Of a DNA stretch of 35,932 bases, positions 11,294-12,441 are shown one piece after another (positions within the stretch are counted from its first letter, which is position 1; every line of letters begins with the position of its first letter). The DNA lies in the UHGV virus genome UHGV-1541349; one strand, written 5' to 3'. The notes below the pieces were generated by a model. The model ran no database searches, was not told where the DNA came from, and saw nothing but the letters and a program-made list of their open reading frames with translations. Origin of the DNA: a virus. The position numbers and the translations under genes are program-made.

Positions 11294-11317
11294 AAAAAAA
11301 CCCGCCGAAGCGGGTTT
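11294..11317 (-). terminator. Rho-independent terminator downstream of the moron
   Basis: Perfect hairpin aaacccgc-cgaa-gcgggttt followed on the minus strand by a T7 run. Lies between the stop of the 11334 gene and the gpV start. Confidence 0.6.
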
Positions 11318-11333
11318 ATTTTGAATCTTTGAT

Positions 11334-11966
11334 TTAGTGTAGCTGCTCGGTACTTATCACAAGCAGACGATGGGAATGGCAATCTCTATCATTACCCCAA
11401 CAGAAGTTGGCCCAAGTGCCGTAGAAATCATCCCATGAAGTCATGAAAGTCAGTGGGCGTTCTTCCTGTGTACCGTCAGATACATAAACGTGATAACCCT
11501 CAGTCTGAATTGCCCAAGCAATCATTCGTTCCCAGAATCGGCGACCATCTAAAGTCTGCTCACTATCGGAAACCACGATGGAGTAGCTACTCAGGAAGAA
11601 TTTGAAAAATTCTTGCGGCAGTCCACGGACAGCTGTATCAAACTGAGGTTGAACAGTTTTCCAGACAAGAATCTGAGTACAAATTTTCCGGGTAGGAACA
11701 ATGTGCTCAAGGAAATCGAGTTTTACTGCATACACAGTTTCAGGCACGCCAGAGTCAGTAACCAGACGATACTGATTGCCTTTTACAGCCTGGAGCAAGC
11801 GGTAGCCATGAGGAGTAACAAACCCAGGCAAAGCAAACTCTTTCACACCAGCGCGGATGAACGCTTCGGTATGCTCGATGTTTTTCTCTGTCATGTTCAG
11901 CTTTGCGTCGAAGCTAGCTGATGGGATCTCATATGGCATTTTATGGTTCGCTCGGTAAGTTCTCAT
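11334..11966 (-). CDS. Hypothetical protein, moron inside the tail operon
   Basis: Start placed at ATG 11966 behind a GGAGG RBS (ORF track begins at 11993). No recognisable motif. Visibly lower GC than the flanking baseplate genes. Confidence 0.55.
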   Translation of the reverse strand: MRTYRANHKMPYEIPSASFDAKLNMTEKNIEHTEAFIRAGVKEFALPGFVTPHGYRLLQAVKGNQYRLVTDSGVPETVYAVKLDFLEHIVPTRKICTQILVWKTVQPQFDTAVRGLPQEFFKFFLSSYSIVVSDSEQTLDGRRFWERMIAWAIQTEGYHVYVSDGTQEERPLTFMTSWDDFYGTWANFCWGNDRDCHSHRLLVISTEQLH

Positions 11967-12090
11967 AGTGACCTCCATGCTTTGCTGGAGCACTTCTTAC
12001 AGGTTAGGCAAATATTAGTATCGTAATACAGTTTAATACCATCCTTCATAGATGGGCAAGGTTAATCTATGTTGGCTTGTATTAGAGGGG

Positions 12091-12441
12091 TTACTTAACT
12101 TTCACACAGTCGTAAGTTGCGTATTGACGCGGCGCATTCATGCTGGCTTGCAGCCACTGAGCGTTGAGAATGGCCTTGCCGTTGCGCTTGATGTACTCAA
12201 GACCAACCCAACGACCGGGTTGATTAGTAGCCATGCGCCATTCCATCTTAATGTTCTCGTAGTCTTCTTTTTGCTTAAGGAACGTTACCTTCTGAGTTTC
12301 AGGCTTCGCACCGTTAATGCGTGCCCATCCATCATTTGCCGGGCTGGTGCCCAAGTGGAAAGGCCCACACTGGGAATCAGCATGAGCTACGCCCGCTAGG
12401 GCAAAAGAGCTACAAGCAATCATCAGGATGAGTTTTTTCAT
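12091..12441 (-). CDS. Small secreted (periplasmic) protein of unknown function, moron
   Basis: Start placed at MKKLILMIACSSFALAGVAHA, a Sec signal peptide with an AHA-D cleavage site; the ORF track start is at 12501. Mature part about 95 aa with two Cys. Confidence 0.55.
   Translation of the reverse strand: MKKLILMIACSSFALAGVAHADSQCGPFHLGTSPANDGWARINGAKPETQKVTFLKQKEDYENIKMEWRMATNQPGRWVGLEYIKRNGKAILNAQWLQASMNAPRQYATYDCVKVK

Follow-up and report, generated by a model that had tools for sequence, protein, structure and literature searches.

The stretch between positions 11,294 and 12,441 of the virus genome UHGV-1541349 (35,932 nucleotides, nt, analysed in full and hereafter called the window) holds two genes, one for a protein of 116 amino acids (aa) with a predicted export signal and the other for a protein of 210 aa, which lie between the genes of the baseplate hub and the central spike. 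Judging by comparison with related phages, this stretch is the payload of a hypervariable accessory-gene slot at the hub/spike junction of lambdoid-regulated temperate myophages of Enterobacterales, kin of SEN34 (Brunovirus). The same comparison indicates that the borders of the slot are fixed, by the hub stop codon on one side and by a conserved intrinsic terminator 10-25 nt ahead of the spike start on the other, and that what fills it here are two unrelated, independently inherited genes. An initial annotation of this DNA had correctly placed the two open reading frames (ORFs), which are on the minus strand, between hub and spike, and had correctly seen in them non-structural accessory DNA within a late tail operon. 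It also took them for a single inserted moron with its own terminator and for a candidate new prophage system, a claim that has to be lowered, as nothing in the comparison speaks for the two genes being a new system. The explanation we consider best overall is that of a swappable cargo slot with a resident exported barrel protein and a roaming single-gene cassette, its mechanism being inferred, and we put the probability of this explanation at roughly 0.62.

Variability of the junction is what carries this interpretation. The related loci compared (numbered with the prefix L) comprise eight Escherichia coli prophages, 33 species-representative loci found with the hub protein and three IMG/VR contigs; the hub, the spike and both query proteins were located in each of these Enterobacterales loci, and presence counts are given over about 43 of them. 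The hub is kept in all (50-100% identity), and the gap that separates it from the spike runs from 399 nt in L046, with a similar 426 nt in L021, up to 5010 nt in L038. The 116-aa gene directly follows the hub in 38 of the 43 loci, at 41-100% identity, and is the sole gap gene in L021 and L046, whilst the 210-aa gene is present in five only (the window, L001, L050, L051 and L052). Among other occupants of the gap, RefSeq lists toxin-antitoxin pairs (Phd/Doc), DUF4236 and several unrelated hypothetical proteins for the E. coli loci, and Pfam finds in the wider set T5orf172/MUG113, Mrr_cat (the Mrr-type restriction endonuclease domain), CLP_protease (ClpP-like) and a P22 antirepressor, together with a weak match to DUF7946. 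Small ORFs beside the P22-type antirepressor we presume, by eye, to be Arc-like. Such variability of the gap, together with the exchangeability of its cargo, marks the junction as an accessory or defence hotspot. Literature searches, including those on SEN34/Brunovirus and on the PHROG and RefSeq identifiers, found no description of a hotspot at the hub/spike junction. Related DNA occurs in 67 of 5426 complete E. coli genomes, and the same insert in only one of them, the O19:H7 strain 730V1 (NZ_CP061764, 3915272-3916436).

Some of this cargo deserves a word of its own. The loci with cargo genes include L029, L045, L033, L036, L049 and L040, among whose products Pfam identifies a T5orf172 protein (409 aa, coiled-coil) and an Mrr_cat nuclease with a membrane anchor. 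Further cargo consists of a 250-270-aa protein paired with a 130-aa protein, HEPN-like by eye only, and of a 186-aa protein in L040, ADP-ribosyltransferase-like, also by eye only; a Pfam scan gave no match for the 249-aa and 134-aa proteins of L036, the 130-aa protein of L049 or the 186-aa protein of L040.

The terminator ahead of the spike gene consists of an 8-bp (base pair) stem and a UUCG loop (AAACCCGC-TTCG-GCGGGTTT, positions 11317-11298, with a T-run ending at 11294), and lies 12 nt before the spike start codon. It ranked first in a scan for terminator-like sites, the total of which (13 sites, against 10.0 +/- 3.7 in shuffled sequences) was not above chance. Since scan counts alone cannot exclude chance, we hold the terminator to be real on the strength of its conservation with compensatory changes. 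The 90 nt leading up to the spike start were compared in 43 loci, and each of these has, at a distance of 10-25 nt from the spike ATG, an AACCCGC-loop-GCGGGTT type of hairpin with a T-run behind it; loci where the small gene is the only cargo are no exception. Compensatory changes in the stem turn C-G into G-C in L013 and L020 and G-C into A-T in L004; L038 has an extra pair, and L014 and L039 have several changes. Across 23 distinct aligned versions 90% of cells pair and double changes are seen in five of the eight stem pairs, a level reached by none of 500 shuffles, whilst in slid registers 34-53% of cells pair and double changes are lacking. This covariation implies that the hairpin is selected as a structure and forms a fixed right-hand border of the slot. 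The hairpin and T-run proposed in the initial annotation are therefore borne out as a conserved structure, and it is the word ‘own’ that fails, as the hairpin precedes the spike at every locus where the spike start is readable, whatever the cargo. The predicted terminator belongs to the phage lineage, i.e., to its backbone, independently of the cargo. An Rfam search of positions 10200-12700 found no family above its gathering score, and the sub-threshold matches reflect the terminator alone.

Base composition points the same way. The guanine-plus-cytosine (GC) content of 11294-12441 is 0.464, compared to 0.540 for the hub and 0.572 for the spike, and no other 1148-nt segment is lower between about 6.4 and 32 kb (kilobases), i.e., in the structural module of roughly 25 kb; the earlier remark that the stretch is richer in AT than the flanking tail genes thus holds. 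Most of this drop comes from the 210-aa gene (0.463) and from the two intergenic pieces (0.40 and 0.37), the 116-aa gene being, at 0.499, near the mean of the whole window (0.493). In the 40 loci of a first survey the gap (0.27-0.47) was always lower in GC than the flanking hub and spike genes (0.49-0.57). Conservation in all relatives together with uniform GC, which the initial annotation had named as a pattern that would speak against an insert, is half present in the 116-aa gene and not at all in the 210-aa gene.

If the slot is transcribed on its own account, the hub gene itself could be where this begins. A promoter scan found, inside the 3′ end of the hub gene, a candidate sigma-70 promoter whose -10 element, TATACT, matches the consensus in five of six positions and coincides with hub codons Y320-T321. 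Amongst 41 distinct hub genes of 50-100% amino-acid identity, TAT is used in 40 of 40 cases and ACT in 39 of 41, and third positions nearby vary freely. The codon entropy of Thr321 (0.33) is the lowest of 85 conserved codons with at least fourfold degeneracy, the next being 0.92, and none of the 82 adjacent conserved pairs is more constrained than Y320-T321. This synonymous constraint suggests that TATACT may be a promoter embedded in the hub for the benefit of the slot. Directly upstream of either slot gene, the scan gave no consensus-level promoter.

The 210-aa gene is, on comparative evidence, a horizontally acquired and mobile single-gene cassette. Its copies in L051 and L052 are 82% identical to that of the window, compared to 55% for the hub and 50% for the spike, and the simplest explanation of such a difference between cargo and flanks is that a divergent phage acquired the gene at this same slot. 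Outside the slot, the gene stands between the genes for the tail assembly chaperone and the tape measure in Serratia siphovirus prophages, adjoining a P22 antirepressor and Arc; downstream of Bro-N/AntA in about 25 E. coli podovirus-like prophages, on the strand opposite to the ejection-protein and tailspike genes; and, as a 69%-identical 210-aa homolog, at the right genome end of the lambdoid Escherichia phage LLS (L096, 5001-5633), where it is the last gene after the spanins. The latter site we take to be the position used for bor in lambda, i.e., a classical bor-type moron site. Homologs also lie in an Hrp island of Pantoea, with a PemK toxin gene as neighbour, and in a plain chromosomal site. 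The orientation of the gene relative to late genes varies (as in L063 and the E. coli podovirus-like loci), and the copies at other sites each have their own, different hairpin terminator. No conserved adjacent partner, of the kind expected in a type II toxin-antitoxin system, was found for it, the neighbours being different in every context, and the 116-aa protein, predicted to be exported, is ruled out as a cytoplasmic antitoxin.

The 210-aa protein is presumably cytoplasmic and belongs to PHROG 1349 (4e-104), a family for which no function is recorded. It counts 68 clusters at 90% identity, whose named sources are all Enterobacterales, and a profile search extends it to 828 representatives at 50% identity, mostly free-standing proteins of about 200 aa. 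Structure comparison finds in the 210-aa protein the core fold of the GNAT superfamily, from whose members NatD (4ua3) and the C-terminal domain of Rv1916/ICL2 (8g8k) it differs by some 55 residues added at the N-terminus and by an additional pair of helices. Sequence comparisons were of less help. No acetyltransferase family of Pfam matched the 210-aa protein or 107 family members, the profile of these 107 members matched none of the PDB sequences, and aligning the family to one Acetyltransf_1 protein (L012) with hhalign gave a probability of 0.2, which is uninformative either way. Motif A (Q/RxxGxG/A, the loop binding the pyrophosphate of acetyl-CoA) is lacking in 48 of 48 close homologs and is not positionally conserved in the 107 distant ones, the motifs conserved instead being AVxGLPQxFF and VVSDxxQTxxGRRFW. 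With the canonical acetyl-CoA motif missing, we call the fold GNAT-like and do not class the protein among the acetyltransferases. A divergent enzyme is conceivable, as is a non-catalytic binder similar to the regulatory Rv1916 domain; a true acyl-CoA transferase seems to us doubtful. One of the 107 members, the distant P0271, has an MqsA-type zinc ribbon at its N-terminus (Pfam MqsA_antitoxin, 3.4e-20), the match being assigned to this protein by eye from its CPxC zinc-ribbon N-terminus.

Not only the protein but also the leader of the 210-aa gene seems to be conserved. In the window, a CTCC element (11990-11987) can pair with the GGAGG Shine-Dalgarno (SD) sequence (11976-11972) within a predicted hairpin at 11994-11967. 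Thirteen distinct leaders from different phage contexts (the window at 11967-11994, L005, L009, L051, L054, L056, L057, L061, L063-L065, L068 and L090) have CTCC or GTCC 9-14 nt upstream of GGAGG. Minimum-free-energy folding pairs the SD in all six leaders tested (-7 to -10 kcal/mol, z from -0.3 to -2.4), and the pairing is specific to the register, with 71% of cells against 35-46% in slid controls. This suggests that the predicted leader hairpin restrains translation of the gene, although register specificity without covariation makes it only a lead. In several loci of other contexts a further hairpin and T-run stand about 10 nt upstream of the leader, and the mobile unit may thus comprise hairpin, leader, ORF and terminator.

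The 116-aa gene is of a different kind. Besides its prevalence in the slot, it is found after the hub in phage isolates of Klebsiella and E. coli; it is gone or replaced in L014, L022, L025, L042 and L043 and reduced to a fragment in L037. The N-terminus of its product has the n-h-c layout of a signal peptide, namely MKK, the hydrophobic 15-mer LILMIACSSFALAGV and AHA|D, and the AxA|D cleavage site is kept across 63 homologs, with A19, A21 and D22 invariant or nearly so. Secretion by the Sec pathway, as proposed earlier, thus remains the prediction. An AlphaFold model shows a helix at residues 2-15 followed by an eight-stranded, avidin-like beta-barrel, and the two cysteines C25 and C112, invariant in the family, make one conserved Cys25-Cys112 pair. 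The gene product is therefore predicted to be a Sec-exported, disulfide-bonded beta-barrel of 95 residues, encoded by what is usually the first slot gene of the lineage. Its family, PHROG 3443 (5.4e-45), is as devoid of recorded function as that of the 210-aa protein; it has 163 clusters, with all named sources in Enterobacterales and none with a Pfam domain. Similarity to avidin/streptavidin-like eight-stranded (calycin-type) barrels goes with a sequence identity of 6-10% only, and the fold tells little about function, as the same score range includes the Cap15 barrel and an immunity protein of the type VI secretion system. Greater conservation of the C-terminal half of the barrel, as would suit a recombination anchor, was looked for in the 63-sequence alignment and not borne out (0.73 vs 0.73).

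The barrel varies in its company as well. In L020 and L032 it forms the C-terminal part of a fusion that begins with a lipoprotein domain of some 190 aa, and in L014 and L022 the same domain, with a different C-terminal part, replaces the barrel gene. L038 (Serratia aquatilis, 7084-12093) has seven tandem barrel paralogs, beside which lies an ORF that we take, by eye, to be an IS256-type transposase. Where the barrel is missing, the gene that comes first in the slot tends nonetheless to code for an exported protein, be it a lipoprotein (L014 and L022) or a secreted protein (L025 and L042). For both slot proteins alike, searches of Pfam, NCBIfam, PADLOC and, with phmmer, the PDB sequences gave no match, and the literature on their PHROG and RefSeq identifiers contained no characterisation of either; a search on prophage GNAT defence proteins returned no relevant title or abstract. 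The initial statement that neither protein belongs to a described functional family is thus upheld.

How could such a slot work? The nin-region genes NinX, YbcO and RusA lie upstream of the slot in the same orientation and are followed, again in the same orientation, by a Q antiterminator (30973-31461, Pfam 1.1e-24), two tRNA genes, holin, Rz and Rha. The phage is a lambdoid-regulated temperate one with a single long Q-dependent late operon, an organisation well established for lambdoid phages. Its Q gene, together with what is known of lambdoid biology, suggests that during lytic growth the Q-modified RNA polymerase would read through the whole late operon, terminator included, so that the slot would not interrupt tail synthesis. 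In the lysogen, transcription would probably start at the promoter in the 3′ end of the hub, cross the slot and stop at the terminator, and this stop would keep the spike and the other baseplate genes silent. If TATACT is indeed a promoter, the slot would be a nested transcription unit with fixed promoter, exported-protein gene, exchangeable cargo and fixed terminator. A lysogen-active, terminator-insulated expression slot with conflict-related cargo is thus, on the sequences at hand, the best-supported mechanism. The barrel would act in the periplasm on the cell envelope, and it is possible, if somewhat doubtful, that it is a superinfection-exclusion or entry-blocking factor directed against tail tips of its own kind. 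The 210-aa protein would bind or acylate a cytoplasmic target through its GNAT-like core, its translation being held low by the leader hairpin, and a role for it in phage-phage or phage-host conflict we consider an even bet. The more ambitious combination, in which an undescribed built-in slot, bracketed by a promoter concealed in the hub gene and by the covarying terminator, holds both a new single-protein anti-phage or anti-defence effector (the 210-aa protein, which with its more than 800 clusters at 50% identity would hop between accessory sites of unrelated temperate phages) and a new periplasmic superinfection-exclusion family (the barrel, aimed at the cognate tail tip), is unlikely to hold in all its parts.

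Several observations weigh against the slot explanation or against its mechanism. The E. coli loci were picked for diversity, and their frequencies are not population estimates. The -35 part of the candidate promoter is weak and not conserved, and the synonymous constraint on TATACT could stem instead from RNA structure, a pause or a recombination site. Ahead of the 210-aa gene, no site in the intergenic spacer reaches 9/12 in the promoter scan and, given also the hairpin and T-run that precede the cassette elsewhere, this gene may be expressed mainly by antiterminated late transcription and not in the lysogen. Explicit pair counting found no covariation in the leader hairpin, for which RNAalifold gave no consensus structure either. 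PADLOC-DB 2.0 models, at E <= 0.1, matched neither slot protein, and the barrel matched none of the known lysozyme inhibitors, transglycosylase inhibitors or superinfection-exclusion (Sie) proteins, its nearest folds being generic small barrels.

The main rival follows from the late-transcription option just mentioned, and holds that the 210-aa protein is a counter-defence or host-takeover factor of the lytic cycle, made from antiterminated late transcripts or from those of antirepressor operons. The gene has no convincing promoter upstream; it points the same way as the late genes in the window, in the Serratia siphoviruses and in LLS; some 25 loci have it downstream of a Bro-N/AntA antirepressor gene, of a kind typically expressed on infection or induction; and terminator-like hairpins flank the cassette on both sides in several contexts. 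GNAT-fold anti-defence proteins are known, AcrVA5 being one. Its sites, however, are classical places of lysogenic conversion and defence (the post-spanin position, an immI-like region and a slot that also takes Phd/Doc and nucleases), and the orientation relative to late genes, as we have seen, is not fixed. A purely lytic factor therefore seems unlikely to us, though it is the competitor that survives best.

More improbable is the view of the 210-aa protein as a toxic effector, be it of abortive infection or a solo toxin, silenced by the SD-sequestering leader. Toxins with a GNAT fold exist (e.g., TacT and AtaT), the anti-SD leader is conserved, one homolog adjoins a PemK toxin gene and the fusion of P0271 to an MqsA-type antitoxin domain may hint at a toxin-antitoxin-like relationship of the family. 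But this fusion concerns a single member, the structure of the leader is weakly supported, and we see neither a conserved partner or antitoxin gene in any context nor a match to PADLOC models or toxin-antitoxin families.

Very improbable, in turn, is the notion from which the initial annotation started, that the two genes form one inserted two-gene moron with its own terminator and jointly a new prophage defence or exclusion system. The two are adjacent, co-oriented, both uncharacterised and jointly low in GC, and the same pair recurs in E. coli 730V1 and in L050-L052. It is nonetheless their distribution that largely refutes this view, as 33 loci have the small gene and lack the 210-aa gene, and over 35 loci, belonging to other phage types, show the reverse. 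Besides, 124 nt of spacer separate them, the 210-aa gene has a conserved leader of its own, and the terminator is a property of the lineage and not of the insert. Least probable of all is that one or both proteins are components of the baseplate or of tail assembly in the late operon, a role that would suit their position between two essential baseplate genes and the conservation of the small gene, 4 nt past the hub stop, in most relatives and in isolated phages, but not the predicted cleavable signal peptide and disulfide pair of the small protein, which are unusual for virion parts assembled in the cytoplasm, nor the loss, replacement or decay of its gene in the six loci named above, nor the absence of the 210-aa gene from 38 of 43 relatives and its presence in siphovirus, podovirus-like and lambdoid phages and at non-phage sites, nor the fact that neither protein is structurally similar to tail proteins, the relationship to essential baseplate components that the initial annotation had allowed for.

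The swappable slot is thus the explanation that we retain, and Table 1 gives its parts and surroundings. The tail module is akin to those of Salmonella phage SEN34 (Brunovirus) and Citrobacter phage Omnitron, and the hub, besides its PHROG assignment, has a weak match to Pfam E217_GP41 (7.7e-06), which is under the curated cut-off.

Table 1. Parts of the hub/spike slot and adjoining tail genes in the window, in the order of transcription.
Feature	Positions	Strand	Basis or remark
Tape-measure protein	14438-16441	-	
Dit-like protein	13812-14438	-	
Plug protein	13510-13815	-	
Baseplate hub gene, left border of the variable slot	12446-13507	-	PHROG 196 ‘baseplate hub’, 6.7e-84
Candidate sigma-70 promoter, TTTATA-17-TATACT	12545-12573	-	Promoter scan, 9/12; about 100 nt upstream of the small gene
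116-aa ORF	12091-12441	-	ATG start
AT-rich spacer between the 116-aa and 210-aa genes	11967-12090	-	124 nt, GC 0.40
210-aa ORF	11334-11966	-	ATG start, GGAGG 5 nt upstream
Intrinsic terminator (predicted), hairpin and T-run, right border of the slot	11294-11317	-	Terminator scan and conservation
gpV-type central spike, first gene past the slot	10542-11282	-	Pfam N-terminal domain 2.8e-41 and Apex motif 3.8e-07

The window has further accessory DNA. A second small insert of 228 nt (10314-10541, minus strand) lies between the spike stop and a gp25-like wedge gene, and contains a terminator-like hairpin at about 10526-10490 followed by a 45-aa ORF (10317-10454, GTG start) with one transmembrane helix; the spike/wedge gap is of equal size in L002 and L018 and absent in L001 and L003, and SEN34 has a 45-aa ORF annotated there (SEN34_23). 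A complete IetAS defence system occupies 2500-5984 on the minus strand, in the low-GC arm just past the tail-fibre assembly gene (6720-7325, Caudo_TAP), and is made of IetA, an AAA ATPase (4998-5984, PADLOC 5.5e-77), and IetS, a subtilase (2500-4989, PADLOC 2.9e-34 and Pfam Peptidase_S8 4.3e-54). The two tRNA genes between the Q antiterminator and the holin gene, tRNA-Thr(TGT) and tRNA-Asn(GTT), lie within 30726-30881, also on the minus strand.

Compared to known systems, the slot shares features with several and coincides with none. Small exported proteins that act in the periplasm or envelope as superinfection-exclusion factors are encoded beside tail-tip genes in other phages, as are Spackle in T4, Llp in T5 and Cor in phi80 and N15. 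The barrel is likewise a small, predictedly exported and lineage-specific protein encoded beside the puncturing apparatus, and it diversifies through paralogs, lipoprotein fusions and replacements as proteins of that type do; it is unrelated to them in sequence or fold, however, and the likeness may be one of functional analogy only. Morons of the lambdoid phages HK97, HK022 and lambda (Juhala 2000 and Cumby 2012, cited in bioRxiv 10.1101/2024.10.15.618418) are defined by a promoter and a terminator of their own. With these the stretch shares its insertion between essential late genes, its atypical composition, its presence or absence in collinear relatives and an intrinsic terminator that the Q-modified polymerase can ignore. 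The moron layout initially proposed thus stands as far as presence/absence among collinear relatives and base composition are concerned, and falls with respect to the terminator, which here, possibly together with the promoter, seems to be part of the phage backbone and to stay fixed while the cargo swaps, no promoter having been found directly upstream of either gene. A fixed position with rotating defence cargo is also what characterises the hotspots of P2-like phages and P4 satellites (Rousset et al. 2022, bioRxiv 10.1101/2021.01.21.427644). The likeness here lies in defence-type cargo (Phd/Doc, the Mrr-like nuclease, T5orf172 and uncharacterised genes), and the difference in the carrier, a lambdoid-regulated myophage with a simple baseplate, in the location at the hub/spike junction and in the presence of a resident exported protein.

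In conclusion, phage accessory hotspots have been productive places for finding defence and counter-defence genes, and the hub/spike slot mapped in this work adds one to them. It also separates two uncharacterised families that had been taken together, one a widely mobile GNAT-fold protein with a conserved leader, the other an exported barrel tied to the tail-tip genes of these phages.

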